A DNA stretch of 64,000 nucleotides from Nitrospirota bacterium (GCA_963840455.1 CAWIYV010000011.1:608001-672000), one strand, 5' to 3'; counted from the first letter of the stretch, positions 10,713-58,540 are shown. Notes: generated by a model from the letters alone, not told the origin. A program made the numbers and translations.

Positions 10713-10970
10713 GAAAAAAAGAGCTAATTCCTGATTGGAGTTAGCTCTAGATCGTGCAAGTCTTTGGCCGATGGTGCACTCCAAGGACCAATAAAACACT
10801 GAAAATCAGTGCCTTAAATGGTGGAGGCGGCGGGAATTCTATCGTTCGTCCAACCCATCGATATTCGGCGAGTATTTTTTCGAGAAATTGCGACATACCC
10901 CAAATAGATACCCCTGAAATGCTGGATGCTGTAAGTCTGCATTGGATGATATAAGACAGCATTGGACAAT
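10713..10970 (-). repeat. att junction J1: tmRNA-3'-end core 10819-10838 with conserved arms
   Basis: Hairpin 10720-10748 with T-tract on -, IHF-like AATCAGTGCCTTA 10804-10816, core TGGTGGAGGCGGCGGGAATT, arm CATACCCCAAATAGATACCCC. Confidence 0.88.
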
Positions 10971-11029
10971 GTAGTCATACTATGCATTTTGCACTACAGG
11001 TTTTAAGGGGCAGGTCAAGCTTCAGTCGT

Positions 11030-12937
11030 TCACTGCGGCGTGATATCGCTCTGCTTGATGCCTGCATCTGACTTGGCTTGATCCATCAGTGCGGCGCAGT
11101 TGCTGTCCGTTTTATCGCCAAAATCGAGCAGGGGTATCAGCCCGGCCACGCCCACGGTCGCTGCGGCCAGACCCACCGCGAAGCCGCCGCGCACTGCCAC
11201 CTTGTTCGTGTCAGGTTTAGCCTTCGGCTTTATGAGCGTGCCAGTGACAAGGATCGGGCCTCGCAGCGATACCAGGCTGAACCCCTTCGACTGCGATACC
11301 AGTCTCAGGTGCAGCGATTCATCGGCAAAGTTCACGTTGCCATCGCCGGTAATATTTACCTTGGGCGTATCCAGCACCAGGTCCTGGACTTTGAAATCCC
11401 CTTCGACGGCCTTGAAGTTCGCCACCATGCATCGTATCGGGACGTTTTTGTCGCCGCGCAGCAGCACCAGGAACGAGTTGGCGATGTCGACGTTGGCTTT
11501 TCTGAGCAGCAGCTCGCTTATGGTGCCGCCGTCTATGATCAGCGCCGCCTCGCCGTTCGCCGATCCCATCATTTGCGAAATCGAGTCTCCCTTGGCGTCG
11601 AGCTTTGCGCGCCCGCCAATGACTCCCGGGTTGGAGGCAGTCGGTTTCGAGGTCGGGAGCAATTGGTCGAGGTGCAGTCCTTTCGCCGTGATGTCGGCAT
11701 GGGTGATGATGTGTGGCCCGCGCCCGTCCATCGTGATCTCCGTGACCAGCTTGCCGCCGGCGGTTTCGAAGTTCAGCGGCGCAAGTTTGAGCGTGCCGTC
11801 CTTTATGATGAGATGTGCATCCATCTTTTCGATCGGCAGCCTCGTGGTAATGATCTTATCGCCCTTGAAAAGGACATCGGCATCGGCAGCGCGGATCTTT
11901 TCGAGGCTGAAGGGCATGGTCGGCAGCACCTTGTTGCGCGGTCCGCTGACGAGGTCTGCGCCTATGAAGCCGCTCAAGTCGTTCATTTCCAGGCGGCGTG
12001 ATTCCAGGTCGGCGGTGATCAGTTGGGGGATCTTGCTGCGGTCCACCGACAGATCTCCGGTCAAATCACTCTTTCCCACTAACCCCTCAAAGCGCTTGAA
12101 TGTCCAGATGTTGCCGGTATGGGTCAGGTACCCTGTCAGCCTGTAGGGAGGCGTCGGCGGAAAAGGCACACCGATGATCGGATACAGCTGGGCAAGATCG
12201 ATACCTTCGAGAATGATATTTACCTTTTCGTTTTTCAAGTGCAGGGGGTCGAGCAGCGTTCCGTTGATGCTGGCCCTGGTCCTACCCAGCATCAAAATCG
12301 CCTTGATCGGGTAGGGCCGGTCGGCGCGGCGCAGCGCAAGCAGCGCTCCGCCGCTCATATAGAGCTTGGCGTCCATTCCCCTGAACCTGCCTTTTCCCTT
12401 CACTTCGACCATGGTATCCGGCCCGCCCTCGGCAACGGCTAAGGTATTTATCACGAATGACAGGTTCGTATTGTTCGTTGGATTGCGATACGTGAGGGTT
12501 CCATTATCGATGGAAAGCGAACCTATGTGGGGGAATTGCCATTGCTTGCCTGCCTTGTTGAAAACCCAGTTCGGCGTGCTGTCCTTGTTTACTTCGAGCG
12601 CCAGATAAAAATCGGACAAGGATATTTCAGGAATTGACAAACGGCCAATGAGGAGCTTCGGTATGCTGATAGTGAGATCAACGCGCTTGATCTTCGCCAT
12701 GGGCGGATTGTTACCCCATTCTGCGTTGCCCATCACGATGTCGTTGGCGATGATGCGCGGCCACAGCGAAAGATGCACATCCAGATCACCCTTGATCTCA
12801 AAGCTTCTGCCCGTCGAACGTGTCACCTGGCGCGCTACATACGGACGAGCCAGATTCCAGTCGAATGCACTTACGGCCACGACCAGCAGCAACAGGCCTG
12901 CGCCTACTCCGACAAGCCACTTTCTCCTTCGGGTCAT
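11030..12937 (-). CDS. AsmA-family (YhjG-like) protein
   Basis: RBS plus ATG 12937; N-terminal TM, FDWN..RP..GR.FEI.GDL.V, PPTPPY.L.G.L, G.VG.SDL.G and IRC.VA.F motifs. Confidence 0.85.
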   Translation of the reverse strand: MTRRRKWLVGVGAGLLLLVVAVSAFDWNLARPYVARQVTRSTGRSFEIKGDLDVHLSLWPRIIANDIVMGNAEWGNNPPMAKIKRVDLTISIPKLLIGRLSIPEISLSDFYLALEVNKDSTPNWVFNKAGKQWQFPHIGSLSIDNGTLTYRNPTNNTNLSFVINTLAVAEGGPDTMVEVKGKGRFRGMDAKLYMSGGALLALRRADRPYPIKAILMLGRTRASINGTLLDPLHLKNEKVNIILEGIDLAQLYPIIGVPFPPTPPYRLTGYLTHTGNIWTFKRFEGLVGKSDLTGDLSVDRSKIPQLITADLESRRLEMNDLSGFIGADLVSGPRNKVLPTMPFSLEKIRAADADVLFKGDKIITTRLPIEKMDAHLIIKDGTLKLAPLNFETAGGKLVTEITMDGRGPHIITHADITAKGLHLDQLLPTSKPTASNPGVIGGRAKLDAKGDSISQMMGSANGEAALIIDGGTISELLLRKANVDIANSFLVLLRGDKNVPIRCMVANFKAVEGDFKVQDLVLDTPKVNITGDGNVNFADESLHLRLVSQSKGFSLVSLRGPILVTGTLIKPKAKPDTNKVAVRGGFAVGLAAATVGVAGLIPLLDFGDKTDSNCAALMDQAKSDAGIKQSDITPQ

Positions 12938-13237
12938 GATCGTTCTAGCTCCTTGTATCTTGTGTTTCCGGGCAGACAGGTAGCACGACCAGGTTTCAGA
13001 TTGTCGTCTTACCAAGCAAGAGGCTCTGTGTGTTTATAATTATAACACGTGGTGTCAGGAAAAAGAAAAGCCCCTCGCTGTCATTTCGAGCGCAGCGAAA
13101 AATCCCGCAATGGGGACAATATCCCGATTACATGATGCTGTGTGTAACCTGGATTTTATGATGTAGTTTCTGAACAGCAGCTTCTTTCTGCAGCTCACGA
13201 CAGTTTCATTTTATTGAAATTGCTAGCTCTATATCTA

Positions 13238-13539
13238 TTGTCCAATCGCCTAAATTACAATACCCCGAAAAATACCCCAACTTGTGAGCGCTAGAAAACA
13301 AAAAAAGAGCTAATTCCTTTAAGGAGTTAGCTCTGGTTCCAGCCTGTGTTCAGTGGAGACTTTCGAAAAAATCAAAATATCACTGAATATCAAATAGATA
13401 TGGTGGAGGCGGCGGGAATTCTAAAGTTTGTCCAACCTTCGATATTCCACGATATTTATTTCTAGAAATTACGACATGCCCCAAAGAGATACCCCTTTAA
13501 TGCTCGATGTCACGAGACATTGTCGGACTAATTCGGTCT
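13238..13539 (-). repeat. att junction J2: core 13401-13420 with conserved arms
   Basis: TACCCC pair near 13261-13278, hairpin 13306-13334, IHF-like TATCAAATAGATA 13388-13400, exact core, right arm ending GGACTAATTCGG. Confidence 0.9.
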
Positions 13540-13570
13540 GGAACCCGACTTCAGTCTCCGGTCTCAGGCA

Positions 13571-14953
13571 CTAGCCTCCGGGCAGGAAATCGATCGGGTA
13601 CAGAATGGTCGTCTTGGGTACATTCTCCTTTGGCCCAAAGTTGAACTTCTTGACGCGCTCAACAACCTGGGCCACCAGCTCCGGAGAGGCCAGATCGGAG
13701 GACTGCATCGTGCATGCAGAGACTTCGCCGCCCGGTTCAATGGTGATCCGAAGCAGGATCTTACCGCGCAGGGTCGGGTTTTTTCTGAGTTCGGTATTAT
13801 ACATCCGGTAGAGCGATGCCTTGTACTTATCGAAGACGATCTGGATCTCTTCGTCCGTCCTTGCCGGTCCGGGCCCGGAACTGAGAGGTCTTGAACCATC
13901 ACCCAGGCCCGCCATACTGCTTTCTACCCGCGTAAACCCTACCCCGCCAATGCGATTGCCGTTGCCGTTACCGATGTTGCGGCTGACTCCTGAATTGCTG
14001 ATGCCGCCGCTGCCGCCTGTGCCACTCGCTCCGGGTATTGCGACAAGCGACCGGCTGGCACGGGCCTGACCTGCTGCGGCAGACTGGTTATTGATTTTGG
14101 CTTCAGCGCCGAGCTTTGCAGCGGGAGTTTCCTCGATCAGGTCCTTAAAGGAGTCCCGGAAAGCAAGTACCCCCGTGGTCTCCGCCCGTTTACGCGCTAC
14201 CTGCTTTTCAGCCGGGGCGGGTTGCTCTTCCTTCGGCTTTTCAGACGCTTTTTCCCGGGTCTTGTCGGCCTTCTTCTCTTCTTTGGTACGATCAGGCACC
14301 TGCTCAGGAATGGGCGGTTCCTTCCTGAGCATCGAGACAAGGCGCTCCGGGACAACGGCCACTACCGGGCGTGTGAGCGGAGGAAGCTTCCACAGGCCAA
14401 TGACCGTGCCAAAAACAATATAGAACAGGAAGGCGAAAAGAAGCAACCGGCGAAAACGTTTTTCGCTCTCGGATTCTTTCCTCCATGGCATTGTCATTGA
14501 ACGATTGGGGGCTTCCACAAATTCACGTTCTATGATGTACTCTTCCTCGCGGCGCTCTTCACGGGCGTACGCATCGCGTACTTCTTCCGAGAGAATGTCA
14601 AGTTCGTTGAGGCACTGTCTTATCTGCCCCTCGAGAACCGTCCGTTTTTCCAGAATGCCTTTAATATCGCCGTCAAAAAGGGCGATCCGGTTCTTGATCC
14701 GTTCAAGGTGCTTGGCGCTTGGGGTATTTGCGATCCCGTCCCAAAAGAGTTCGCCTGCATTAAGCTCCCCCAGTTTGCCGAGCGCGTTTAGAACGTCCCG
14801 CAACGCATCGAACCGCTGCATGTCGTCCGAGAACGCCTCGATCTCCTTCTCTACAGATCGAAGTTCGCTTTGCAGTGCATCGTGCTGTCGCTGGATCTGC
14901 TCGATATTGGTGCTCAGATGAGCCAATTCTTCTGATAAAATGGATGTGTTCAC
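13571..14953 (-). CDS. TonB-like AgmX/PglI (GltG-like) C-terminal domain protein
   Basis: N-terminal coiled coil, single TM, Pro/Lys/Gly-rich linker, C-terminal RTDEEIQIVFD..KA.LYR.YN.ELRKNPTL.G; probable GTG start 14953 with RBS. Confidence 0.8.
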   Translation of the reverse strand: MNTSILSEELAHLSTNIEQIQRQHDALQSELRSVEKEIEAFSDDMQRFDALRDVLNALGKLGELNAGELFWDGIANTPSAKHLERIKNRIALFDGDIKGILEKRTVLEGQIRQCLNELDILSEEVRDAYAREERREEEYIIEREFVEAPNRSMTMPWRKESESEKRFRRLLLFAFLFYIVFGTVIGLWKLPPLTRPVVAVVPERLVSMLRKEPPIPEQVPDRTKEEKKADKTREKASEKPKEEQPAPAEKQVARKRAETTGVLAFRDSFKDLIEETPAAKLGAEAKINNQSAAAGQARASRSLVAIPGASGTGGSGGISNSGVSRNIGNGNGNRIGGVGFTRVESSMAGLGDGSRPLSSGPGPARTDEEIQIVFDKYKASLYRMYNTELRKNPTLRGKILLRITIEPGGEVSACTMQSSDLASPELVAQVVERVKKFNFGPKENVPKTTILYPIDFLPGG

Positions 14954-14966
14954 GATAACTCCGCTA

Positions 14967-15461
14967 TTACTCCGCCTTCTGGACGACAGCGAGTGATATC
15001 CTTCCATATCCAGAGGCCGTGCACGTTGACATTATTTTTTTAAGCACCTTAAACGGGATCGTTTTGTCGGCGAGGAGAGTGATTTCCTTGCTTTCAGCGA
15101 CCACGTTGGTGCCCATACCGACCATATCGCTTTCAAGCTGCTTCAGCCGATCTCGTATTTCACGAACTAATCCGATGCTGTCATCCAAAAGGCTCGGGGT
15201 GTTGACCACGGGTTCGTTCTGGATCATGACTGTTTCCGGGCTTACCACGATCGCGATCGTTTCCCTCGGTCTGGCCTCTACCGTGGACACGGGCAGTGCG
15301 ATCTGCGCATCCGGCAGAGTGCTGTTGAATGAGTGGAAAAGCAGGAAAAACACCAGAACGCAAAGGACATCCATCATCGGGATCAGGTTTATACCAAGAC
15401 CTTTGATCGCGCCTTTCTTGTTGTTCCGCTCCATCCGCCTCATGCGTCTGCTGTGTATCAT
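14967..15461 (-). CDS. ExbD/TolR-family protein
   Basis: INLIPMMDVLCVLVFFLL; ADKTIPFKVLKKIM. Confidence 0.9.
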   Translation of the reverse strand: MIHSRRMRRMERNNKKGAIKGLGINLIPMMDVLCVLVFFLLFHSFNSTLPDAQIALPVSTVEARPRETIAIVVSPETVMIQNEPVVNTPSLLDDSIGLVREIRDRLKQLESDMVGMGTNVVAESKEITLLADKTIPFKVLKKIMSTCTASGYGRISLAVVQKAE

Positions 15462-15973
15462 GGCGCATCTCCTATGGCTATCTTTGAAAAGAGGGCGATC
15501 TTCTTCACTTCATCGCTTCCTTCCGACCGGACATCTGCGCTCCGCACCGCATCCATGACCTCGATAAGATGGTCGTACTTGATATCCGGCTCCATCAAAA
15601 CCGTCGCGTCGTCCTTTTCCGGATACTGGTTCTTGATACGCGCGAGGACCTTTGACAGAAGCTCAAGGTCATAGCTATCGCCTTTTTTGGGGATCGAGGC
15701 TTCCACTGATGAGCCATTGGCGACCTGCAGCCCTGCCCTGCGGACTATCACCTCGATGGCGAAATTGGGCTTGCTGGCCAAAGCCCCGCCGCCTGCGGTC
15801 GGAACGGAGAGTTCCTGGACCGTAATGCTCATAAAGACGGCGGTGATGAGCAGGAAAACCACGAGAACGGTAAGGATATCCATCATTGGCGTCAAATTAA
15901 GGAGGTGCATGATATCCGTATCGAAATCAGATGGTTCTTCTCCTCCCCTTCTTTTATGAAATCGCTTGATCAT
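15458..15973 (-). CDS. ExbD/TolR-family protein (second copy)
   Basis: LNLTPMMDILTVLVVFLL; EPDIKYDHLIEVMD; ATG 15973 with RBS. Confidence 0.9.
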   Translation of the reverse strand: MIKRFHKRRGGEEPSDFDTDIMHLLNLTPMMDILTVLVVFLLITAVFMSITVQELSVPTAGGGALASKPNFAIEVIVRRAGLQVANGSSVEASIPKKGDSYDLELLSKVLARIKNQYPEKDDATVLMEPDIKYDHLIEVMDAVRSADVRSEGSDEVKKIALFSKIAIGDAP

Positions 15974-16649
15974 GATTGGCTCCTGTAAGTTGCGTACCAG
16001 GCAGGACCGGAGGTCTGTCGGCCTGTCTCTTCGCAAAGTTGGAAATGGTATTTAACGCCTTTACCGACGCCATTTCCAGACTGTTCACGATCTTGCCCGT
16101 ATTTGTCGTCAGGCGGGCATGGAACAAAAGAAGCGGGATCGCCGCCATCAAACCAAATGCAGTGCAGTTCATGGCCTCTGAAATGCTGGCCGCGAGCAGG
16201 GCGGCCTTCGAAGCGGGGCTCGCGGTCGCTACTGCGGCGAAGGCGCTGATAAGGCCCATAATGGTGCCCAGTAGTCCAAACAGGGTAGCGATATTCGAGA
16301 GCAGCGCCAGATACGGAGTGCGCTTTTCCAATTGAGGGACTATTTCCATGAGGCTCTCTTCCATGGCGATCTCGATGTCTTCCCGACGTTTCACCGCTCC
16401 CTGGCGGGCCAGTCCCATCCCCATCATTTGAGCCATGCTGGATTTGCCCTTGTTGGCCATGTCCCGGGCCTGGTCGAACTCACCCTTTTCGAGTACCGGA
16501 TGCAACTGGTCCCACGCCTTGTCGTTCTCTGTCTGGACCCGGCTCAAGTGAGTCCATCGTTCGATCGCGATGGCCAGGCCGACCAACAACACGAGCAAAA
16601 TAGGGAACATGAAGAACCCACCACTCTGAAAAAACCGTACGATAAACAT
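15954..16649 (-). CDS. MotA/TolQ/ExbB proton-channel protein
   Basis: NIATLFGLLGTIMGLI..ISEAMNCTAFGL. Confidence 0.93.
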   Translation of the reverse strand: MFIVRFFQSGGFFMFPILLVLLVGLAIAIERWTHLSRVQTENDKAWDQLHPVLEKGEFDQARDMANKGKSSMAQMMGMGLARQGAVKRREDIEIAMEESLMEIVPQLEKRTPYLALLSNIATLFGLLGTIMGLISAFAAVATASPASKAALLAASISEAMNCTAFGLMAAIPLLLFHARLTTNTGKIVNSLEMASVKALNTISNFAKRQADRPPVLPGTQLTGANHDQAIS

Positions 16650-16687
16650 TTTGCTTCCTCCTTGTTTTCGCTAACGCGATAATGTTG

Positions 16688-17017
16688 CTATTTCTTGCTG
16701 CTGACCTCGTAAAAATCCAGCTGCCGCTTGAACACGTCACGATCAACCGGCGTTGCGCTTTCATCCAGCTTCATTCCCATGCTTGTCGCCGCGCCTATTT
16801 CCGAGCTCTTCCACGGCACGATATACAGGGACTTCGGGGCTTCATCGTTACCGACGATGGATATGCCTGAAAGCTCCTTTGCGTCAGATGCCTTCGCATC
16901 CTGCTTGGACTCTGTCGTCTTTGGCGCATTTTGGGCCGCCGGTCTCTTTTCAGAAGCCATGGCCATGCCACTCATCGTAAGAAGCAGTCCGACAATAAGC
17001 AATCCTTTCAGATGCAT
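16688..17017 (-). CDS. Small exported protein (GltF-like)
   Basis: Signal peptide; SGISIVGNDEAPKSLYIVPWK motif; position within the cluster. Confidence 0.6.
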   Translation of the reverse strand: MHLKGLLIVGLLLTMSGMAMASEKRPAAQNAPKTTESKQDAKASDAKELSGISIVGNDEAPKSLYIVPWKSSEIGAATSMGMKLDESATPVDRDVFKRQLDFYEVSSKK

Positions 17018-17036
17018 GTTCCCTCCTTTCTTTAAA

Positions 17037-17729
17037 CTAATGTCCGGCCCTCATACGAAGTTCGGCTATCCAGGTATTGACCTGTGGGTCAGAGGGCATT
17101 CCCTCGCTGTAGACCTCAAACTGTTTGAGCGCACATACCGGATCGTTGAGATAAAGATCACAAAGTATCCCGAGATTCTTATGGACAGGCAGATACTCCG
17201 GGAAGCGTGCGATCTCCTTCTCATAAACCTCTCGCGCCTCCTTGAATCGTCCAGCCTTCCTGAGAAGCAACCCATATTCATTGCTGGCTACCGGGTGAGC
17301 GTCAAATAATCCCAAAGCGGTTTTTAGGTTCTGCTCGGCCTGCTCAGGTTTGTTCATCCGCATATAGGCAACCGCAATGTTAATATATGGCGCAGTGACG
17401 CCCGGTTGCCGCTCGATAACTTTTGTCAGAAGTTCTATGGCCTTGTCATTTTTCCCGTCCTTCATCAGTGAAACGGCGCGCTCGAATTCCCCCTTGGATT
17501 CGCTGTCCATTTTAGGGTTTTCCCTGATGACGAACCCCTGCTGGCCATTCTCAAGCTGTGCCACGGATGGCCCCTGGTCTATAACGGCTGCGTTAGGGGT
17601 CGGAGTCTCTGATATCTTTGCCTTGGCCGCGCATCCTGTAAATACAAAGACTAGGGTCATCATGGATAACCAAACGGCCATCCTTTTAGGTCCTGACAGC
17701 AATATCAATTCTCTATTATTGCCCTGCAT
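17037..17729 (-). CDS. TPR lipoprotein (GltE/AglT-like)
   Basis: Lipobox FTGC; TPR repeats; NLGILCDLYL. Confidence 0.8.
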   Translation of the reverse strand: MQGNNRELILLSGPKRMAVWLSMMTLVFVFTGCAAKAKISETPTPNAAVIDQGPSVAQLENGQQGFVIRENPKMDSESKGEFERAVSLMKDGKNDKAIELLTKVIERQPGVTAPYINIAVAYMRMNKPEQAEQNLKTALGLFDAHPVASNEYGLLLRKAGRFKEAREVYEKEIARFPEYLPVHKNLGILCDLYLNDPVCALKQFEVYSEGMPSDPQVNTWIAELRMRAGH

Positions 17730-17759
17730 GGCACAGATCCTTTCCTGGTCACAGGACCA

Positions 17760-20700
17760 TTATTCTGACGCTGTCTCAGATGGGGAACTCTTGACGCCGA
17801 TCTCGCCCGATGTCTTAACCAGATTATGAGGCTTCACATTCTGTCCCGGGTCCGCCTTCTTTCCCTCTTGCTGAACATCAGCCGGATCCATATCAGGTTC
17901 CTGTTTCACAGCCTTCACCGGTTCCTTTGGCACTTCTACTTTTTCGTCCTTCATTGGACTATCAGCCTTCTGCACGGCTGGTTCATGACGCTCTATGGCG
18001 TACAGGTAATGGTCCGCTGAACCTATGACGGGGCTATCCTCTTCCGGTTTATTGTATCGGGCGGGAAGAAGCGCTGCCAGTTTATGCAGGCTCTTATCGA
18101 CCCACTCGTTATATACCCCGCGGGAGACGAGCTCGAGATTGCTCTTATGCATGGAAATGGCCTTCTCCTCGAAGGGATATGCCTGTTCCTCAAGGGCAAG
18201 TTCGTACTCTTCAAGCTCGAGTGCGGTCAAGTCTTTAGGACGTTCCGACTCCTTCAGGCCCAGGCTAAAGTCGGAATAGATCTCGGCAAGATAGAAGGTC
18301 GCAGCGGCAGTGACCTCGCCGACCTCATAATCGAGGAGTTTGCTGAACTGCTGGGTCACAACCTTCATCAAGCTCTTTTTCTTGTCAAGGTTCGCCTTGA
18401 ATGGCTCAACCAGCTTGATCCCGGTAAACTGGCCGAAGGTCTCCTCGGCCAGGACCAGGGCGCCTTTCCCTGCAAGATAGCGGGTACGAGGAGTCCGTTC
18501 CGCCCCCGCTCCGGCATCGATGACGATGATCTGTTTTATCTCGGCTAAATAGTTCTCCCGGTCGTTCTTCTTTAAGGATTCTGCTATCTTGTTTCGGGTT
18601 TCGAGGTTTGCTTCCACCGGATGCGGGAAATGTTCAACATAGCGCCGATAGACAAGAAGTGATTTGGCCTGGTCTCCCGCCTTCTCATGAAGTTCTGCCG
18701 CGGTCAAAAGCGCTTCCCGCCTCACCTCGTCATCTTGCGACTCCGTTTCCATGCGTTCATATTCTCCGGCTGCAAGCGTAAATTTACCGTCCTCGCGGTA
18801 AACATAGGCGATCTTCTTGGTCACCTCAGGCAGGAGCGCATGTCCGGGGAACAGGGTCCGGAATCCGGCGAGTGCCGCGGCCGCTGCCTGCCAGTCCTTA
18901 AGCTGGATAAGTGCTGCTGACGCATCATACTCCGCATTGACCCTGATCTTGGACACAGGGGCAAGGCGTCCCACCCGCAGGAAATGCTCGGAAGCTGCCT
19001 TGTAGTCTGCCTTTGCATTCGCGTCTTCGCCCTGCTTGTAGATCGCCGCAGCAAGGTTGTCGGTCAAGGCTTCACGGCCTTTGTCTCCATCAGGGAAGAG
19101 CGTGAGTGCCTTTGCGTAGGCGGTTTCCGCTTCATTGTACCGATGGAGCTCGTAGGTCCCGTGGCCTGCCACGATCCACGCTCCGCGAACGACATCAGTA
19201 CCGGCACCGGGGAATCTATCTATGAGCTTCCGCGCGGCGGCCACTGACTGCTCGTAATCCTTCATATTGTAAAGGTCATCTGCGGCTGCCCCAAGAACGA
19301 TTGCCGTCTTTTCATGCTCCGGATAGGTGTCGGCAAACTTGAGAGAGCTCGCTACGACCACTCGCTTTACGCTATCCTTCTCCTCGGGAGGAACACTGTC
19401 CATATGTTTACGATAGGCGTAAACTGCGGCGTAACCGGCTTCTTTGGACTTTTCATGGCGCGGGTATTCATAGGCTGTCCTTGCGTATTCAATAGCCGCA
19501 AGGTCAAAGTTTTGATTTTCCAGGTACAGGTCGGCGAGCAGGTAATTCATGCCCGGAGACTCGGTATCCTTCGGGAAGGACGTGAGGAATTCCTGGTACC
19601 AGTTACGCGCTTCCTCGAAGTTTGCCTTTTTCTCCTTTACCTCTTTCGGGTCCTGGTAAAGCGAGTGATAATGCTTGGACAGGTCGGTAATATTCGTTTT
19701 GAGCCATGCCAGGACCTCTGGACGGGCACTTGGCTCGAAATGCTTCCAGTATTCGGACTTAAGCCCGTAATTATGAGCAAACTGCTTTTTCGCGTCAATG
19801 ACCAGGCTGGGAAACGCCCCGGCAGTATCTATCTCGATCACGCGCATGGCGAATTGCGGCGCTACCTTGTGGACCGGGTTGCTGTTAACGAAAGCATTGT
19901 AGACCGTCGCAGCATCGGCGTAACGCTGTTTATCGAAGTAGAATTCTCCAAGGTTGCTGTAGATCCCATCCTCGTAACTGCGCTTGCCGTGGCTTTCAAA
20001 GTACGCGGCCGGTGACGTGTCTCCATGCAGGCTGGAAAAACACAGGCTGATGGCGCGGAAGGTGTCATCGATGCGCTTTTTCTCCTGCTCATCCTTGGTC
20101 TGGTAAAAATCGTAGCCCACCGACACCTTGTGATCGAGAAGCGTAATGTACCTGTCCAGGGCTTCATCGTAAAGTTCCTGCTTATAGAATGTCCAGCCGA
20201 GCTTGTAGAGGGCCAGCTGGTAAAAGGGTGACTGCACGCCCATCTTGACGATACTTCCGTAAGCATCTTCGGCATCAAGGTAATGCCTGCGGGTGTATAG
20301 ATATTCGGCACGCCTGAACTGCACCTCATCAATGTAGCGGGACTTGGGGTATTCCTTAACCAGACGGTCCATGACCTTCATGGCCGGGTCAACCTGACCC
20401 AGTTCCTCGTACGCGCGGGACATCTGATAGAGCACCTGGTCGTTCCTGTCATATGAGGGGTAATCCTTGATAAGCTTTTCGTAAAGCGCGATCGCCTCGC
20501 GGGCGCTTGCCCGCTCAAGATCCTCAGAATTTGCGGCACCGGTAAGGGTTGCCGAGCTCAAGACTGCACGTTTTTCAAAATCCGCATCGGACTCTGGCGG
20601 TGCCGGGGCCTCCGCCGATGTATGGCCCGGCGATTTCGCGATAGCCGGCGAGACTTTCGTGACTACGGAATGTTTCGGGGCAGACATTGCCGATGCCTTT

Positions 20701-22861: not shown

Positions 22862-22864
22862 AGT

Positions 22865-48488: not shown

Positions 48489-48625
48489 TCATAGCTCATC
48501 GAGATATCGTATGGGCCTATGTTAGCGGAACGCGAGCAAAAGGTAGAGCGCGTTTGAGCGGAGCGAGAATAAACTACTAGTGTTGAAGTATTCTTTGACG
48601 ATTGAACCTTCTGTTCATAATTCTT

Positions 48626-49212: not shown

Positions 49213-49242
49213 CCCCTGAAGGGGTTTATGTCCCTTCAGGGG
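49213..49242 (-). terminator. Rho-independent terminator after the porin gene
   Basis: CCCCTGAAGGG/CCCTTCAGGGG stem followed by a T-tract on the minus strand. Confidence 0.72.
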
Positions 49243-49272
49243 CAATTGGGAAGCAACGATGAATCTTGCAAA

Positions 49273-50454
49273 TTAGAATATGTAATTGATGCCGAAGGAA
49301 ACCACGGACGGGTCTTCGCCGGCTCCCGGTGTGAATGAACCGCCTGGACCGGCTGTGCCGAGGCCGTAGGTGGCATTCGTTTCGTTTTTTGTCTGCGCAT
49401 ATAGGGCGTAGATGGTGGCGCGCTTTGACAAAGCATGGTCGATGCCTACCGCCATCCACGTAGCGCCCGTATTAGTAGCTGGGTTATCGCCGTCACTGGC
49501 ATTTGCATAGGCAATCTTGATCGTCTCTTTTCCGAATGTCTGGCTGGCCGCGATGTACCAGGCGTTACGGGTCTTGTCGGAGTTGGGTTTTTCGTCCTTG
49601 ATCATCTCGTATACCGCCGAGATCTTCGTGTTCCCGAAGGTAAGACCTGCGCCGAACTTTGTCCCCTTGTTCTCGGAACCGTCCGAATCCCAGGTCGTGT
49701 AGCCGTTCTTGTGGATCTCGTAGGCCGCCGAGAAATATACGGGCTTTGCGTCATAAACCACCGATGCGGACGATAGGCTCGCGCTGCCGAGGTTGTTGTT
49801 GTTCGATTCCGTTCCCGAACTCGTACCCGTACTCGTATTGGTATTCCCCGTCATGGAACGCGACAAGGCGAAACTAATGCCGCTCCACGAGGGCGAAAGA
49901 TACACGACCGAATCCTTCGCCCGGAGCTCGAAATTCGCCGTTCCGTTCACAGTCCCGATCACAGCGTTGTAGTCGCCCATGGAATCAACGAACAGGTCCA
50001 GCTTGCCCGTGGACGTCTTGTACGGGGTATCATAGATGCCGAGAAGCAGCGTGCCGGCGGCCTTATGGCTTAGTCCTAGGAAGGTGTTCCGGTAGGTGAT
50101 CTTGTCGATGTCCGTCGTCTTTGAAGTCACCGGACTGGGTGTTACACTCGAAACTACTGTTGTCTGCGTTCCGTCCAGGTTGACTTGCAGTTCTAATTGG
50201 AATACCGCGTTCAAGCCATTGCCAACGTCCTCTGAGCCTTTGAAACCGAGGCGCGACGAGTTGGTTGAGACCTTGTACAGCTTTTGGTCAGCCGGGGACT
50301 TCGCTCCTGTGTCGATCATGTCGTAAGACACCTTTGCTGCACCATAGATCTCGATGTTGCCTTTGACCGTCGGCGCGTCGCCTTCTGCCGCCAGCGCCAG
50401 GGAGCTAATACTTACAAAAACCGCTAGTGAAAGACCTGCTGCAAATTTCCTCAT
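49273..50454 (-). CDS. Gram-negative porin
   Basis: Signal peptide; SRLGFKGSEDVGNGL.AVFQLE, RNTFLGL, DHALSKRATIYA; C-terminal F. Confidence 0.92.
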   Translation of the reverse strand: MRKFAAGLSLAVFVSISSLALAAEGDAPTVKGNIEIYGAAKVSYDMIDTGAKSPADQKLYKVSTNSSRLGFKGSEDVGNGLNAVFQLELQVNLDGTQTTVVSSVTPSPVTSKTTDIDKITYRNTFLGLSHKAAGTLLLGIYDTPYKTSTGKLDLFVDSMGDYNAVIGTVNGTANFELRAKDSVVYLSPSWSGISFALSRSMTGNTNTSTGTSSGTESNNNNLGSASLSSASVVYDAKPVYFSAAYEIHKNGYTTWDSDGSENKGTKFGAGLTFGNTKISAVYEMIKDEKPNSDKTRNAWYIAASQTFGKETIKIAYANASDGDNPATNTGATWMAVGIDHALSKRATIYALYAQTKNETNATYGLGTAGPGGSFTPGAGEDPSVVSFGINYIF

Positions 50455-50547
50455 CGCGCAACCTCCTTAGATAAGATATTTCCACGTTCTTGCGAATAGC
50501 TTGACTGCAGAATATACGAAGTGTCAGTAACTACATTATTGATAAAG

Positions 50548-50571
50548 CGTTATATATCATAGGGAATAACG
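50548..50571. promoter_or_regulatory. ModE-like operator
   Basis: CGTTATAT-N8-GAATAACG resembles the ModE box CGnTATAT-N8-ATATAaCG; lies between the porin and divergent mop/transporter genes. Confidence 0.55.
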
Positions 50572-51027
50572 GTAGTCAAGCAAAAATGTGCCGGCAATTA
50601 CATGCGCTTCTTTCTAATTTGCCGTCCAGTGTGCAAAATTTTGTTTCGTCTCTTCCCTCTAATCGCAGCGTAAATGATATTTTCACTACGACATTGCGTC
50701 CATGATATAATTGGTGTTATACATAGTAGTCTGTTTTGGCTGGAGGTTCGATACAGTGGTTGCTGGAATGCTCGCATTCAGCGTTATTATTTTTTGGATA
50801 AGCGTTGCTATTAGCAAGCGGCGCGATAAAATGGAGAGGTCGGAAATTGCCACTTATATAGTGCTCATCGCTTGGGGATCGCTCTTATGGGGCTTATTTC
50901 TCATGAAATTCGCGAGATAGCCCTTGCATTGACGGGGTAGGATCGGAAGCTGCCACCAGTCTCTGATATTCAGCAAATGGTCCAAAGATTGATATTACAC
51001 AAATCATACTCATGAAGGAGGAACGCC

Positions 51028-51234
51028 ATGAAGTTAAGCACAAGAAATCAGATCAAAGGCAAGGTGATTGAGGTGAAGAAAGGTGCTGTCGCAGCAAAAG
51101 TGAAGATCGACATTGGCGGCGGTAACACGATCACATCCACGATCACGGCAGATGCTGTAAATGACCTCAAATTGAAGAAGGGTGATAAGGTTATCGCCCT
51201 TATCAAGGCCAGTAGTGTCATGATCGGCAAGTAG
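51028..51234 (+). CDS. mop: Molybdenum-pterin binding protein (Mop/TOBE)
   Basis: MKLSTRNQIKG..ITSTIT..V.DL.L..GD.V.ALIKASSV; strong RBS. Confidence 0.92.
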   Translation: MKLSTRNQIKGKVIEVKKGAVAAKVKIDIGGGNTITSTITADAVNDLKLKKGDKVIALIKASSVMIGK

Positions 51235-51313
51235 CACCTGCCCCAGCGAGGGTGATTTCTGCGGTTAAAGATATCACCTCGTTTTAGACAGCATCGGAGG
51301 ATGTCGTTCTGTC

Positions 51314-52501
51314 ATGGAATTGAGCATCAAGGACGAGAAGAGCGAGGATGCGAAGGCTCGGGCCGAGGCAGGCATTGCTGTTAAGACAAGGAATCAATAC
51401 AACCGCATGGAATGGGCCGGCGCTTTCGGCGACGTCGGAACGCTGATCCCTTTTGTCGTTGCATATATCACGATCGTGAAGATGCCTCCCCTCGGCCTTC
51501 TCTTCATGTTCGGCGTTATGCTGCTCGCGTCCGGACTCTACTACCGAACGCCGCTTCCCATCCAGCCCATGAAGGCCATCGGTGCGGCGGCAATCGCGGG
51601 AGGCATCAGCCCCGCTGCCCTGTACGGTGCAGGCTTTTCGACCGGGCTTTTCTGGCTTCTTGCAGGCATTACCGGAATTCTGCGGCCGATTGCCAAGCTG
51701 GCAACAAAGCCCGTTGTGCGCGGTATCATGCTCGGCCTCGGCCTCACGTTCATGGTTGACGGTGTCAACCGGATGAGAACAGCGCCCGTTCTGGCTGGCA
51801 TCGCCCTGGTCGTCACCTATATTCTCCTCACCAATCCCAAAGTCCCGGCAATGTTCATGCTCCTTATCATCGGCGTTTTGTCCGCGGTGATCATGAACCC
51901 TCAGCTTCTATCAGAACTGGCGAAGATCCACATCGGGTTCAACATGCCGGTGTTCAGCCTTCCGATGATCACCTGGAACGATTTTGTGACCGGCACGTTG
52001 CTTTTCACCCTCCCCCAGATCCCGCTGACCCTCGGCAACGCGGTCATCGCAATTACCGCCGAGAACAACGAACTCTTCCCTGATAGGCCGGTTACGGAGA
52101 AGAAAATTGCAATTTCTCAAGGCATCATGAACCTCATCGCACCCCTCTTTGGCGGCATTCCGATGTGCCACGGCGCCGGCGGCATGGCCGGACATGTCCG
52201 CTTCGGAGCAAGGACCGGCGGAGCACTGGTCATCCTCGGGACTTTGCTGATTTTCATCGCTCTTTTTCTAAGCGATTCTGTCTCCATTATCTTCAAAATA
52301 TTCCCAAACGCGATCCTGGGCGTAATCCTGTTCTTTGCCGGTTCGGAGCTCGCCATCGTTGTAAGAGATATCGGCGACAAGAAGGCCGACTTTTACGTGA
52401 TGCTCGTGGTTGCAGCTGTTGCCATGTGGAATATGGGAGTCGCGTTTCTCGTTGGCGTGATCATGGATAATGCACTCAGAAAAGAGTGGCTTAAGATTTA
52501 G
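51314..52501 (+). CDS. MOT1-family molybdate/sulfate transporter
   Basis: EWAGAFGDVGTLIP, PIQPMKAI, PQIPLTLGNA, PMCHGAGGMAG..FGARTGG. Confidence 0.88.
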   Translation: MELSIKDEKSEDAKARAEAGIAVKTRNQYNRMEWAGAFGDVGTLIPFVVAYITIVKMPPLGLLFMFGVMLLASGLYYRTPLPIQPMKAIGAAAIAGGISPAALYGAGFSTGLFWLLAGITGILRPIAKLATKPVVRGIMLGLGLTFMVDGVNRMRTAPVLAGIALVVTYILLTNPKVPAMFMLLIIGVLSAVIMNPQLLSELAKIHIGFNMPVFSLPMITWNDFVTGTLLFTLPQIPLTLGNAVIAITAENNELFPDRPVTEKKIAISQGIMNLIAPLFGGIPMCHGAGGMAGHVRFGARTGGALVILGTLLIFIALFLSDSVSIIFKIFPNAILGVILFFAGSELAIVVRDIGDKKADFYVMLVVAAVAMWNMGVAFLVGVIMDNALRKEWLKI

Positions 52502-52566
52502 ATTCTTTGATAGCCCCCCGACCGACACACATGCGATTCATATTGGGTAGAATTCCCGAAGGCGCT

Positions 52567-52918
52567 ATTTAATAGTTTGTCCAATCACCTGAATTACAGT
52601 CATTATCAGAAATTCGATTTCTCAAACATACACCCAAAAGTACCCCCAACCATCTAGTCCTAGAAATAAAAAAAGGAGCTAAATCCGTTAAGGACTTAGC
52701 TCTGGTCCCCACCTGTGTTCAATGGAGACTTTCGAAAAAAAACAAATATATCACTGTAAAAACAAATGATTATGGTGGATGCGGCGGGAGTTTAATAGTT
52801 TGTCCAACCGCTCAATATTTCACGATTATTATTCAGCCCTTATATATATGACATACCCCAAATAGATACCCCTGAAATTCTGGATGTCATGATGACCGCA
52901 TTGGACTAATTCGGTCTT
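52567..52918 (-). repeat. att junction J5 (core 52773-52792) preceded by an empty mini-element starting at 52567
   Basis: TGGTGGATGCGGCGGGAGTT; extra right-arm start ATTTAATAGTTTGTCCAA at 52567; hairpin 52676-52703; IHF-like 52760-52772. Confidence 0.87.
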
Positions 52919-52941
52919 AGCCTGCCAGGGAACAAATGCGC

Positions 52942-52998
52942 TTACTTCGGCACCTTGCTCAGCGGAATGCCGAGTGCCTCTGCCACTCCTTTTCCATA
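52942..52998 (-). pseudogene. Possible 3' remnant of a monofunctional catalase
   Basis: YGKGVAEALGIPLSKVPK* resembles the clade-3 catalase C-terminus (DPxYGxxVAxxLG); only 18 aa. Confidence 0.4.
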
Positions 52999-53051
52999 AC
53001 GTTCCGGTTCAGCGGTGGCAGTATGCCGTCCGCTGGAACCGGAGGTCAGTT
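52994..53051 (-). mobile_element. Integron attC-like site (58 bp)
   Basis: Minus strand: AACTGAC-CTCCG-GTTCCAGC-GGACGGCATACTGCCACC-GCTGAAC-CGGAAC-GTTATGG; 5/6-bp spacers, extrahelical base in L'', R'' AAC changed to GAC. Confidence 0.62.
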
Positions 53052-53101
53052 TACTGTTTGTTCCGCCCCGTCAAGAGACCATGCAGACCTGGATGCCACG
53101 A

Positions 53102-55324
<2,223 letters not shown>

Positions 55325-55425
55325 TTACATTGATTTTATTGATCCAACCGGCTCGTGAACGTATCGTGGCGCCGCTCCTCATCAGCGAGAACGTTCTCAA
55401 AGAGAAGCCGCGCCGTCGCGGTGAA

Positions 55426-55836
55426 TCAGCCTGCACGTTTTCGGCGGCAATCTTTACAATATCCATAATATTCGTATCTCATTGCCACGGGTTGAAAATC
55501 CGTCTTCTGCTGTACCTGCGCATATGATAGCGTGATTCCGCCGGGAAGGTCTTCGATCCTGCCGCACCTCTTGCAGATGAGATTGATGTGGTTCGTTGTA
55601 TTGACATCGTACCGATTGTCCCGGTTGTAGAATTCCAGTTCGTGGATGAAGCCCTCTTTTTTCAGAATGTCGAGAGTTAAATAAACTGTGGACATGCTGA
55701 CGTGCGGCACTGTTTTCCTTATCTTTTTCAATATGTCAGCGGCACCGGGATGCGTCATGTCCTTCGAAAGCAGGTTGATGATCGCTCGTCTCGGCGAGGT
55801 TAGTTTGTAGCCCTTCTCTCTGAGGCTCTTTTGCAA
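55426..55836 (-). CDS. Fur/PerR-family regulator
   Basis: KLTSPR..HPGA..STVY.TL..HINLICKRCG..GYCKDC; directly upstream of katG. Confidence 0.88.
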   Translation of the reverse strand: MQKSLREKGYKLTSPRRAIINLLSKDMTHPGAADILKKIRKTVPHVSMSTVYLTLDILKKEGFIHELEFYNRDNRYDVNTTNHINLICKRCGRIEDLPGGITLSYAQVQQKTDFQPVAMRYEYYGYCKDCRRKRAG

Positions 55837-55883
55837 AACGTTTCAATTTCCTGCGGAGTTGAGGACTGTTTCATAATATACAT

Positions 55884-55938
55884 AATAGGAATGGTTCCGA
55901 ATTAGGTTTAATTATGATTAGTCTGTTCTCTTTGTCAA
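55884..55938 (-). promoter_or_regulatory. Promoter with PerR-like operator
   Basis: TTGACA 55933-55938, CATAAT 55911-55916; imperfect palindrome AATAGGAATGGTTCCGAAT 55884-55902. Confidence 0.5.
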
Positions 55939-56350
55939 GGCATCTTGTCCTAAAAAATATCGTTGATGAAATAATGCGATTACGATAAATCTTCCTTCCC
56001 TCGTATCTTTCCGAAGGCCCCCTATCCGGTCCCAATTCTCAACGTAGGCCCGGATCACGGCCTTCGTCGATAACAATGACCTTGTAGTGTTCGATTCCGA
56101 ACAGAAGCGCTAATCCTTATTGTATCCTCATGAGAAGTGACTTGAGAAGTGACTGTGATACTGCATCTACGGCGATCTGTCAGAAGCCCTATGCGGCGAA
56201 TTCTCAAGAATAGAATACTCATCCGTACAGTTCCCCAATGGCGATATCCATAGCAACCAGTTTTCCGGCGTCCTGGATTTCCCCTTCGAAAACCTTGCGG
56301 CAACCGCATCAGGGAAGGATGACCCTATATCATCGCTTTGTGCGGCTTCT

Positions 56351-57340
56351 GTGACAGAAGGCCGTGAAGTGCTCTTCACCCGATCCACCATCGCGCCCCG
56401 CTATACCTACTACAGACCCGCCGACTCCGCAAGGAACGCCGACCACGCGACGAAGACCGGACCGTTCCAGGTGCTTGGAATCGAGTACGATCACTGGCTG
56501 GGAGACCTTCCGTACGTCCTCATCCAGACCTCAGGGGCCGTGGGAGGAAATACGGACGGATACGCGGAAGTTTTCGCCGGCCTGGGCCTTAAATTGCCCT
56601 TAATAGAAAGACGCGGGTCATTCGCACTCTATATGGACGCAAATGGTGCGGTCGGCGCGGCAGGGGGAGGCAATCTCGACACCGGTAATGGGATGATCAC
56701 CAAGATCTCCTTGGGAGCAATCATCGAAGCAGACCGTAAGTTCGGGCTGTCACTCAGGGTCGGCAAGGCAACTTCGCACGGGACCTTTGAAGCAGATACG
56801 TACGAAACATCGCTCCGTTACTCCTGGGAAGCCGCCTTCCTTGGAGGTCCAGCAAAAGAGCCCGCAACAACCGTTCACGATGTTAAAATCAGCGAATGGC
56901 GCATTCGATATGCTGTCCAGCAGTATTATAACGCAACATCCAAGGACGGCATCGAGCAGAATATCTCCCTTCTGGGTGTGAAGCTCGATAAGATCATAAA
57001 TGGTACGCAGTTCTACATTACCGGGCAGGCCTATAGCGCTGTTCTCGGCAATGCGGGCGGATATTCCGCAGGGTTCATGGGCATTGGATACGAGACGCAG
57101 CCGATATTTACGGAGAGGACCAGGGCGTTCATTGAACTGCTCGGCGGCGCCGGCGGCGGGGGAGGAATCGATACGGGAGGCGGAACGATCGTCCATGGCG
57201 CAGGGGGCCTCCGATACGAGATCACGCAGAATCTAGGGCTCGAGCTCGAAATAGGGCACATCAGTGCGCTGAGCGGCGAATTGAACAGCGTAACCAGCGG
57301 AAGAAGCATGACCTATCGGTCCTGGTCATTCATTCGTTAG
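56351..57340 (+). CDS. Outer-membrane beta-barrel-like protein, two internal repeats, probably 5'-truncated
   Basis: Two SAVxGNxxGY..GAxGGG..DTGxG repeats; alternating beta-strand pattern; no signal peptide or clear start. Confidence 0.55.
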   Translation: MTEGREVLFTRSTIAPRYTYYRPADSARNADHATKTGPFQVLGIEYDHWLGDLPYVLIQTSGAVGGNTDGYAEVFAGLGLKLPLIERRGSFALYMDANGAVGAAGGGNLDTGNGMITKISLGAIIEADRKFGLSLRVGKATSHGTFEADTYETSLRYSWEAAFLGGPAKEPATTVHDVKISEWRIRYAVQQYYNATSKDGIEQNISLLGVKLDKIINGTQFYITGQAYSAVLGNAGGYSAGFMGIGYETQPIFTERTRAFIELLGGAGGGGGIDTGGGTIVHGAGGLRYEITQNLGLELEIGHISALSGELNSVTSGRSMTYRSWSFIR

Positions 57341-57551
57341 CCGCTTTTTTTTAAAACACCCCCTCGACATCAACTTCATTTCACTTTCCACTTCACACCA
57401 CGAACGCATTAAGTCTATCCGCGCGGTGAAGCCAAAAAAAATAAAGCAAATTGATCCCCTTTGGCATAGATTTGCTTAAATTGTCACATTATGCCCTGCA
57501 ATATCGAACAGGTTGAGGGATACGTCACGGAGGGGATCGAGAAGAGGATGC

Positions 57552-57947
57552 TTAGGACAGCGGCCACGTTTCAATGCGCAACCCTTCAATGTGCACAAAA
57601 TGCTTCTTGTTGCCCGTTACCAGAACCGCTTTATGCGCAATCGCCGTTGCCGCGATAAGAGCGTCAACCTCTCCGGTCGGCTTGCCGATGCTTCTCAGTC
57701 TGCTTTTGATCGACCCGAACGCGTCGGCGCATTCCAGATCGAAGGGTATCGATTGGACAACATCCAGCAGTCTGGTCAGTTTATCAAGATTGCGCGATGC
57801 ATTCTGCGACGCCTTCGCACCATAATTCAACTCAGCCACAACCAAGGCGCTTACAGCGACTTTATCGATATTGCCCGCAATCCGGTCCAAGACCGATTTG
57901 TTCCCGTTCAAAAAAGCTATGACGACATTCGTATCCAGGAGAATCAT
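57552..57947 (-). CDS. vapC: VapC PIN-domain toxin
   Basis: MILLDTNVVI..VAELNYG..DALIAATA...LVTGN.KHF. Confidence 0.92.
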   Translation of the reverse strand: MILLDTNVVIAFLNGNKSVLDRIAGNIDKVAVSALVVAELNYGAKASQNASRNLDKLTRLLDVVQSIPFDLECADAFGSIKSRLRSIGKPTGEVDALIAATAIAHKAVLVTGNKKHFVHIEGLRIETWPLS

Positions 57948-58186
57948 GCAAAGCTAACCTCTCTGCCCTGATACTGATGCCGTTCCTTCTCGATCTCTTC
58001 GAAGATCGGCACGATCGTGGCATCATCTGCCCATGCGCCGCAGAGCGATGATATGATCTTCCGCTTTTCGGCAACCTTCAAGGCGGGTTCGATCTTGACG
58101 ATCACCTTTGTACCTTCGGGAATTTTTACTTTTTTAGGAAGGCGAATCATACCTTTTACTATTTTGCTCGTTACCGTGAATACCAT
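57944..58186 (-). CDS. Putative antitoxin (AF2212/DUF104-like)
   Basis: RBS plus ATG 58186, 80 aa, G.IRLPKKVKIPEGTKVIV; 4-bp overlap with vapC. Confidence 0.72.
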   Translation of the reverse strand: MVFTVTSKIVKGMIRLPKKVKIPEGTKVIVKIEPALKVAEKRKIISSLCGAWADDATIVPIFEEIEKERHQYQGREVSFA

Positions 58187-58291
58187 AGCACACCTCCCCT
58201 GAGACGCCAAAGAACCTCTATACGACAGCAAATACATCCATAAAATAGCATGGTCAATGTTATATGACAAGTGACATCTCATATATGAATA

Positions 58292-58540
58292 CAAAAAAGA
58301 GCTGATTCCTAATTGAAATTAGCTCAAAAGGTCGCAGGTATTCGTATAAACATACGCAAAATACCAAGGAATATCGTGCAATATCAATGACTTCCTAAAT
58401 GGTGGAGGCGGCGGGAATTTAATAGTTTGTCCAACCCCTCGATATTACGGGATTATTTTTTCGTAATATTACGACATACCCCGAATTAATACCCATAAAA
58501 TGCTGGATGTCATAAGCTCTAGATGGATTAATTCGGACTT
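58292..58540 (-). repeat. att junction J6: core 58400-58419 with conserved arms
   Basis: Hairpin 58299-58325, IHF-like TATCAATGACTTC 58382-58394, exact core, CATACCCCGAATTAATACCC arm. Confidence 0.88.

Follow-up and report, generated by a model that had tools for sequence, protein, structure and literature searches.

The 3' end of a transfer-messenger RNA (tmRNA) gene recurs in a stretch of bacterial chromosome in which the gene itself does not lie, which raises the question of how these copies came to be there and what they separate. The stretch in question (hereafter the window, 64,000 nucleotides (nt) in length) corresponds to positions 608001-672000 of contig C11 in G000, a metagenome-assembled genome (MAG) of a Nitrospirota bacterium with an assembly of 4.03 Mb. 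An initial annotation, made from the sequence alone, had reported six same-orientation copies of a short core, four of them exact and all of them intergenic, between functionally self-contained gene modules. Indeed, the core 20-mer TGGTGGAGGCGGCGGGAATT has six plus-strand matches in the window and none across 100 shuffles. The copies at 10819, 13401, 40601 and 58400 are exact, while those at 48349 and 52773 carry three and two mismatches, respectively; the core-to-core spacings are 2582, 27200, 7748, 4424 and 5627 nt, and the map of open reading frames (ORFs) places all six between genes.

The core had been interpreted as the 3' end of tmRNA, comprising the remainder of the T-loop, the 3' strand of the T-stem, the acceptor strand and CCA, and an intact minus-strand ssrA had been expected to the right of position 64000. 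Both expectations are borne out. The reverse complement of the core is exactly the last 20 nt of the genome's own ssrA, which is intact on the minus strand at C11:703275-703624 (200 bits), 31 kb to the right of the window; it is the single tmRNA gene in G000, and its T-loop reads TTCAATT. Neither ARAGORN nor Rfam at the gathering score called anything in the window, since each junction holds just 20-23 nt of ssrA.

At up to three mismatches, the 20-mer occurs at ten sites in the 4.03-Mb assembly, i.e. ssrA, eight array copies and one site on contig C5. The eight copies, which all share one orientation, are located at C11:618819, 621401, 648601, 656349, 660773, 666400, 691408 and 697332, within 85 kb downstream of ssrA; six of them are exact, and the nearest junction lies 5.9 kb downstream of the gene. 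A sensitive BLAST search with the flanking arms added a ninth junction with a degenerate upstream arm (P arm) and core at ~C11:597650, 21 kb beyond the eighth and ~106 kb downstream of ssrA, the farthest one found. The six cores in the window thus mark the middle part of a larger array than was first described, which comprises at least nine cassettes over ~106 kb and includes the first 10.8 kb and the last 5.6 kb of the window. Counted from ssrA outward, cassettes 1 to 9 measure 5.9, 5.9, 25.0, 5.6, 4.4, 7.7, 27.2, 2.6 and ~21 kb. A scatter of the repeat over the whole genome, which had been raised as a possible counterargument, was not observed: it is confined to ssrA, the array, a variant on contig C5 and one distant relic. 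Contig C5 (1-7677) opens with a P arm and a core with one mismatch, and the remainder represents a variant of C11:581.6-586.9 kb, with 96-99% identity and two indels, which shows strain-level variation at the distal end of the array.

The junctions around the cores are described here in the orientation of ssrA, i.e. on the minus strand of the window. Conserved arms had initially been ascribed to five of the copies, and this applies to all but the one at 40601: the right arm that the other five have in common measures ~150 nt and the left arm ~110-170 nt, resulting in a repeat of ~300 bp, whereas at 40601 the common sequence is restricted to the core and ~40-55 nt of the right arm. According to an alignment of 18 junctions from 7 genomes, the P arm is built of the conserved blocks ATTAGTCCAAC, ATGACATCCAGC, GGGGTAT-N5-GGGGTATGTC, GAATATC and TTGGACAAACTATT in this order, followed by the core, and includes two direct GGGGTAT repeats as well as a TTGGACAAAC box that adjoins the core. 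Identity with ssrA begins in the T-loop and extends over 20-23 nt to CCA. The downstream arm (P' arm) comes in two types: type B contains a terminator and a second GGGGTAT pair, often with a second TTGGACAAACTATT box, while type A is devoid of the second GGGGTAT pair; the arm that now adjoins ssrA is of type A. A terminator-like hairpin was scored in two scanned junctions and was not called in a third one within the scanned stretch; those of the other arms were identified by eye. The motifs are largely specific to the junctions, with seven of the nine double GGGGTA/GGGGTAT motifs in the 4.03-Mb assembly and all 11 genome-wide occurrences of the TTGGACAAACTATT 14-mer box (up to one mismatch) located there. 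Attachment sites of the lambda attP type carry both arm-type and core-type integrase sites. The layout of P arm, ssrA end and P' arm is attP-like, in line with the hybrid attP-type sites proposed initially, and by analogy suggests the arm-type and core-type sites of a heterobivalent tyrosine integrase.

All six junctions in the window are oriented on the minus strand. The junction between cassettes 8 and 9 (10713..10970) consists of a P arm at 10839-10970, the exact core at 10819-10838 and a type-A arm with a terminator hairpin at ~10714-10750, and that between cassettes 7 and 8 (13260..13560) of a P arm, the exact core at 13401-13420 and a type-B P' arm with terminator and GGGGTAT pair. The junction between cassettes 6 and 7 (40540..40660) has a truncated P arm of ~40-55 nt with the TTGGACAAAC box, an exact core at 40601-40620 and a different downstream hairpin. 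Type-B P' arms are again found between cassettes 5 and 6 (48206..48500), with a P arm, the core at 48349-48368 (three mismatches) and a terminator at 48252-48280, and between cassettes 4 and 5 (52547..52917), with a P arm, the core at 52773-52792 (two mismatches), a GGGGTAT-like pair, a terminator at 52676-52702 and, at 52571-52584, another TTGGACAAACTATT box. The junction between cassettes 3 and 4 (58292..58551) combines a P arm and the exact core at 58400-58419 with a type-A downstream arm, including a terminator.

Some ssrA-related sequences were found apart from these junctions. A solitary degenerate P arm with core, detected by BLAST with the arms, is located at C11:302747-302846, 300 kb from the array, and may represent a translocated or secondary-site remnant; a 36-nt ssrA-like fragment lies 9 kb from it at C11:311723-311757. 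Just inside cassette 3, a diverged ssrA 3' fragment of ~90 nt is present at C11:691062-691151 (window-equivalent ~83060-83150), beyond another terminator-like hairpin. The T-loop of this fragment has the sequence TTCGATT, not TTCAATT, and the fragment is what is left of an ssrA-targeting event that was older or foreign.

Comparison with related genomes locates the variable region precisely. On its 5' side, ssrA lies in a syntenic setting in G002, G005, G007 and G011; past the end of the gene, similarity is gone within ~110 nt, so that the breakpoint sought in relatives indeed coincides with the ssrA end. The junction family is present in other genera as well: it was detected in nine of the 41 genomes sampled as relatives and in 17 of the 64 genomes of the family. 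One to three cassettes each, bounded by ssrA with a P' arm on one side and by P arm and core on the other, were found in G007, G066, G065, G071, G056 and G057. In G007, a single 4-kb cassette lies between ssrA and a P arm with an identical 28-bp repeat that carries G007's own ssrA variant. In metagenomes, the P-arm pattern was present on 46 contigs, of which 33 have the ssrA-end 15-mer and eight contain two or three copies at distances of 1.7-4.0 kb; viral contigs gave no match for two junction patterns.

Within the genus, the cassettes differ in arrangement and location. G003 shares several of them with G000 at 83-93% identity in another order, and its katG cassette is terminal: the junction at the end of this cassette borders on the ancestral flank (homologous to C11:596-583 kb). 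The katG gene of G001, G002 and G005 is situated between homologues of C11:800-806 kb and C11:881-889 kb, i.e. at an ordinary chromosomal locus. The czc module occupies loci without attachment (att) sites in G001 and G002, as also in G005, and lies next to an att junction in G003, where asmA is found in another chromosomal context that resembles G000 contig C10. For cassettes 1 and 2, the five genomes of the genus offer no match at the nucleotide level. As a side observation, the positions C11:806.6 and 880.9 kb are 74 kb apart in G000, and their homologues lie close together, flanking katG, in G001, G002 and G005.

From these observations, we consider it probable that the ~106-kb hypervariable region 3' of ssrA grew by repeated site-specific integration of circular, non-autonomous islands into the 3' end of the gene. 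The attP of such an island would consist of the P arm, 20-23 nt identical to the ssrA end and the P' arm. In each integration, the island-borne attP would recombine with ssrA, with a crossover at or just inside the T-loop; the incoming island would supply a new ssrA 3' end together with a terminator, and the earlier site would be displaced outward as a hybrid junction of P arm, core and P' arm. Judging from the analogy of the sites, the junctions were presumably made by a tyrosine-type integrase. Because no member of the att family was seen together with a recombinase, and G000 offers no candidate beyond a pair of Xer-like enzymes, this integrase would be supplied in trans by a helper element that the assembly does not contain, and the array would currently be fixed. 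Since the junction arms are mosaic and one breakpoint between G000 and G003 lies inside a P' arm, homologous recombination between junction repeats would later have reshuffled the arms and the order of the cassettes.

Several results weigh against serial integration by a helper integrase. Of the 73 array ORFs with 100 aa or more, Pfam scans included 69 (all but those at C11:611590, 611972, 613445 and 623019), as well as six smaller ones, and revealed no recombinase, resolvase, integrase, transposase, relaxase or transfer domain; this agrees with the initial annotation, which had seen no integrase, transposase or relaxase in the modules. The tyrosine recombinase domain PF00589 has none of its seven genome matches on contig C11, which leaves the suggestion of an integrase to the right of the window without a counterpart there or anywhere else on that contig, and it is absent inside the ssrA cassettes of ten relatives. 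Of five relatives searched for the serine recombinase domain PF00239, only G057 gave matches, none of them on its ssrA contig, and no tyrosine recombinase was detected in the 46 metagenome loci (293 ORFs, 184 kb). Regarding the junctions themselves, several internal ones carry a type-A arm like the one now beside ssrA, which the simplest one-site insertion model does not predict unless type A is another P' variant. The breakpoint of the czc cassette between G000 and G003 lies ~150 nt inside the P' arm, away from the core, and therefore fits later homologous exchange better than simple site-specific movement. Neither an excised circle nor an empty site was observed in public runs, which contain only short contigs of relatives. 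In addition, G000 is a MAG, so a mixture of strains might in principle underlie the order of the cassettes, and strain variants do exist, as seen from C5. Finally, the cargo is predominantly encoded on the strand of ssrA (on the minus strand, 23 of the 27 ORFs with 100 aa or more that lie between 10819 and 58400; 58 of 73 across the array), and this bias extends into the flanks and may reflect the direction of replication rather than the elements.

The search for the responsible enzyme extended beyond the array. Two of the seven PF00589 matches in G000 are full-length and score like the Xer pair found in every relative; this Xer-like pair represents the only full-length site-specific recombinases of the genome, and PF00239 and PF07508, the domains of serine recombinases, have no match in all of G000. 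Like the initial annotation, we infer mobilisation in trans by one integrase rather than observe it, with two Xer-like enzymes and no serine recombinase in the assembly. In the ten relatives, the closest PF00589 matches on an ssrA contig are 61 kb and ~208 kb away. Searches with phmmer and hmmsearch, using 13 integrases as queries against the 293 metagenome ORFs and the cassette ORFs, gave no matches. [quoted passage not shown] On the 5' side of ssrA, Pfam supports a P5C-reductase (proC-type), an Ala_racemase_N protein (yggS-type), a laccase-type and a radical-SAM gene, which look like housekeeping functions, and three small genes adjoining ssrA were named yggU-, divIVA- and yggT-like by eye from their translations.

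Individual candidates were dismissed. A 373-aa ORF upstream of ssrA proved to be an antisense artefact, and the ~490-aa tyrosine recombinases of relatives, near which contigs often start, have no att arms, tRNA or ssrA end close by. On contig C14 (532749-533193), a tRNA-Ala(CGC) is followed by the C-terminal remnant of a tyrosine integrase with stop codons, beside a GGGGTAT-N5-GGGGTAT motif that represents one of the two such pairs located outside junctions; it was dropped as a helper, as full-length homologues at tRNA-Ala in six relatives are without the GGGGTAT motif. The same contig harbors three same-strand tRNA 3' portions at C14:56058-56075, 59774-59791 and 72629-72646, each with ~15 nt of identical upstream sequence, an arrangement that resembles another hot spot of tandem islands, here at a tRNA gene.

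How else could the array have arisen? Classical integrase-bearing islands or prophages might have integrated serially at ssrA, each of them later losing its integrase and mobility genes, which would make the cassettes cis-mobilizable elements (CIMEs) produced by decay. Decay is the textbook origin of CIMEs and tandem islands (PMC5704250); decayed integrases also occur elsewhere in G000, as the remnant at the C14 tRNA-Ala illustrates, and the ~90-nt piece of foreign ssrA 3' sequence where cassette 3 begins points to older, different events. No integrase remnant was detected, however, in the nine G000 cassettes, the cassettes of relatives or the 184 kb of metagenome loci, and since both att arms are well conserved across genera, independent loss of all mobility genes with retention of the sites would be unparsimonious. 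We therefore regard an origin by decay as unlikely. An ordinary dispersed intergenic element, i.e. a terminator-bearing repeat or a family of small noncoding RNAs, or a local duplication whose match to ssrA is unrelated to mobility, would account for the intergenic location of the copies and for the good intrinsic terminator that the downstream arms contain on the strand of the flanking genes. It would leave unexplained the exact identity with ssrA over 20-23 nt, the single orientation of copies that all lie within ~106 kb downstream of ssrA, save one degenerate relic near another ssrA fragment, the synteny break at ssrA and the fact that the repeat of G007 carries that genome's own ssrA variant; moreover, no Rfam family matches at the gathering score. 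Such an origin is thus highly improbable.

A resident platform served without any helper by XerC/XerD or by an unrecognised enzyme would be a functional analogue of an integron. The Xer pair, besides being the only full-length site-specific recombinases in G000, is the only recombinase class common to the array-bearing genomes that were checked, and no instance of the att family that was seen has an integrase in cis; katG, asmA and czc are moreover chromosomal in sister genomes and located inside cassettes in G000. If Xer were responsible, dif-like sites might be expected, but none of the junctions is among the best 25 of 33 pattern hits with up to five mismatches. This pattern search was crude, and all seven five-mismatch hits on C11 that could appear are among these 25; the best candidate is a palindromic, AT-rich 28-mer at C7:451052. 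A host-recombinase mechanism of the Xer type thus receives no positive support from the dif search. Furthermore, a site in the T-loop and acceptor arm with direct arm repeats is typical of phage-type integrases and not of Xer, and the G000 cassettes share no recurrent unknown protein. Taken together, a host enzyme as the sole agent appears quite unlikely, and site-specific integration of islands with the aid of a helper integrase is the explanation that we prefer.

This preferred explanation places the array close to several known systems. The tandem ssrA genomic islands (ssrA-GIs) of Dehalococcoides offer the nearest comparison: the sections of McMurdie et al. (2011; PMC3146451) considered here describe a 20-bp repeat, an insertion point in the T-loop and repeats within ~100 kb, as well as 16 islands with a six-gene integration module that includes CcrB-like serine recombinases (DsiB/DsiA) and 15 islands without it, the latter being proposed to be cis-mobilizable. 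As far as these sections go, both systems have tandem islands directly downstream of a single-copy ssrA, extra conserved sequence upstream of the repeats and strain-specific niche cargo. They differ in that none of the nine G000 cassettes contains a recombinase and the genome is without a serine recombinase, that the arms of ~300 bp in G000 with their direct arm-type repeats suggest a tyrosine integrase, and that G000 belongs to the phylum Nitrospirota. Among the features of ssrA-GIs, the location downstream of an intact ssrA, direct repeats of the ssrA 3' end and the synteny break were found in G000, and an integrase of the islands' own was not.

CIMEs, as characterised in the part of the literature considered (PMC5704250), are flanked by att sites, lack genes for integration and transfer, stand in tandem at the 3' end of their target with chimeric internal att sites, and represent decayed ICEs or IMEs beside a functional relative that is able to mobilise them. 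Within the limits of that description, the G000 cassettes resemble CIMEs in being att-flanked and having no recombination or transfer domain in the scans. In contrast to CIMEs as described there, no ICE, IME or decay remnant was found here, and the integrase-free state is family-wide.

Integrative mobile elements exploiting Xer (IMEX), to which the CTX/TLC arrays at dif belong, encode no integrase and stand in tandem at one site; they target dif, carry dif-like sites and use the host Xer proteins. The array is similar in that integrase-less elements stand in tandem at one site and do not encode the recombinase themselves; it differs in its target, which is ssrA and not dif, consistent with the lack of junctions among the best dif-like hits. 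With integrons, to which the initial annotation had likened the array in functional terms, it has in common that one-directional arrays of cargo cassettes with one recombination site each are attached to a fixed chromosomal platform. However, no intI lies beside the primary site, where the housekeeping-looking genes upstream of ssrA are found instead; the junctions are attP-like combinations of direct arm repeats and ssrA core, as opposed to the folded imperfect palindromes of attC; and the cassettes, 2.6-27 kb in size, possess their own regulators (Fur-family, two-component and AraC-type) and junction terminators in place of a common promoter. From this we conclude that the array is not an integron by any defining feature tested.

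The cargo of the cassettes in the window is largely as initially annotated (AsmA, adhesin, efflux set, molybdate transporter and KatG/Fur/PIN), with the domain assignments given here based on Pfam; the label 'Agl/Glt' for the adhesin module is a putative one. Cassette 1, nearest to ssrA, encodes Usp proteins, a P-type ATPase and a dihaem cytochrome c, and cassette 2, the second from ssrA, a cytochrome b561 and a two-component system. The left part of cassette 3 occupies window positions 58552..64000, where an RND pump and a membrane-fusion protein are encoded and a gene for a trypsin-like protease begins; the whole cassette measures 25 kb, extends to C11:691408 and additionally encodes MsrAB, MprF and VirJ, S41 and M16 peptidases, an MFS transporter, a GH15 hydrolase and an alcohol dehydrogenase. 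Besides katG and unknown ORFs, cassette 4 (52918..58291) contains a Fur-family (PerR-like) regulator and a PIN-domain toxin accompanied by an upstream partner, while a porin and a MOT1-family molybdate transporter are found in cassette 5 (48501..52546). The remaining cassettes are encoded on the minus strand. An RND/MFP/OEP efflux set of the heavy-metal type and two small ORFs make up cassette 6 (40661..48205), while two large proteins, one of 1715 aa with an OmpA domain and a DUF11 adhesin of 3077 aa, are found in cassette 7 (13561..40539) together with MotA/ExbB, three TPR proteins and AraC-type response regulators in tandem. The latter are three tandem paralogous AraC-type/response-regulator genes at 38002-40305, with repeat segments that are 65-90% identical, and one or two of them look truncated. 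Only one gene, of the asmA family (11030-13015), is found in cassette 8 (10971..13259), where it is preceded by an upstream region of its own.

Cassette 9, whose right part is window 1..10712, extends over ~21 kb in total (C11:~597650-618819) and carries arsenic/metalloid-type genes, i.e. a S-adenosylmethionine-dependent methyltransferase, a thioredoxin, an SBF-family transporter, which we take to be Acr3-like, and ArsP permeases, in addition to ABC/LolA-like genes, an SLT-domain protein and a 1077-aa Kelch-repeat protein. This last protein, encoded at 7378-10611, has ~14 tandem Kelch repeats with a period of 144 nt as well as Big_2 and DUF7151 domains. Two tandem-Usp genes, at C11:702160-703101 in cassette 1 and at C11:606865-607782 in cassette 9, are 81% identical at the nucleotide level. 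The G+C content of all nine cassettes is 0.50-0.557, compared to a genome mean of 0.579, and they are distant in tetranucleotide composition yet within the 5-95% range of the genome; composition is thus weak evidence only.

Outside G000, a recurrent 4-kb ssrA cassette contains toxin-antitoxin genes along with those for an 800-aa AEP-TOTE primase-SF2 helicase fusion and a conserved protein of 205 aa that has no Pfam match; an integrase is not among them. The fusion gene is located at L018:7789-10191 in G007, L029:6778-9177 in G066 and L031:7015-9414 in G057, and at 11 metagenome loci; the name 'TOTE' follows Pfam and a preprint (bioRxiv 10.1101/2025.09.15.676423). The cassette is probably a defence module. 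G057 contains an intact and a pseudogenised copy in tandem, and the cassettes of G066 and G057 are 86% identical, compared to 76% for the ssrA flank of the same pair. As regards public sequencing runs, which are all stored as contigs, the best of those listed contains a fraction of 0.28 of the window's sampled words. The few joints between junction copies in four of these runs share one depth and are best read as the mosaic junction contig of one relative, which is neutral on the existence of circles.

Both islands in tandem at tmRNA genes and cis-mobilizable elements without an integrase are already known, and a search of the literature on tmRNA genomic islands in Nitrospira, judged by title and abstract, yielded no report of such an array. 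What is unusual is that the att family is integrase-less in every instance seen, in the nine G000 cassettes, in several other genera and on 46 metagenome contigs, with conserved arms. Because such complex arms are conserved across integrase-less instances, a recombinase would still be selecting for the sites. It is conceivable, although we regard it as doubtful at present, that Nitrospiraceae-like bacteria possess a family-wide platform anchored at ssrA with attP-like sites of ~300 bp, whose recombinase is never encoded in the cassettes but is a host enzyme (XerCD or an unrecognised one) or comes from a transient helper. If this were true, the platform would be a functional counterpart of integrons built on tmRNA/attP chemistry, supplying the chromosome with modules for stress, metals, defence and the cell surface, and it could relocate genes such as katG, asmA and czc. 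The combination of P arm and ssrA end provides a concrete marker for hot spots of the flexible genome in Nitrospirota metagenomes, and the identity of the recombinase would reveal how a hard-to-culture and environmentally important phylum trades functions in peroxide, metal, molybdate, arsenic, envelope and defence biology.

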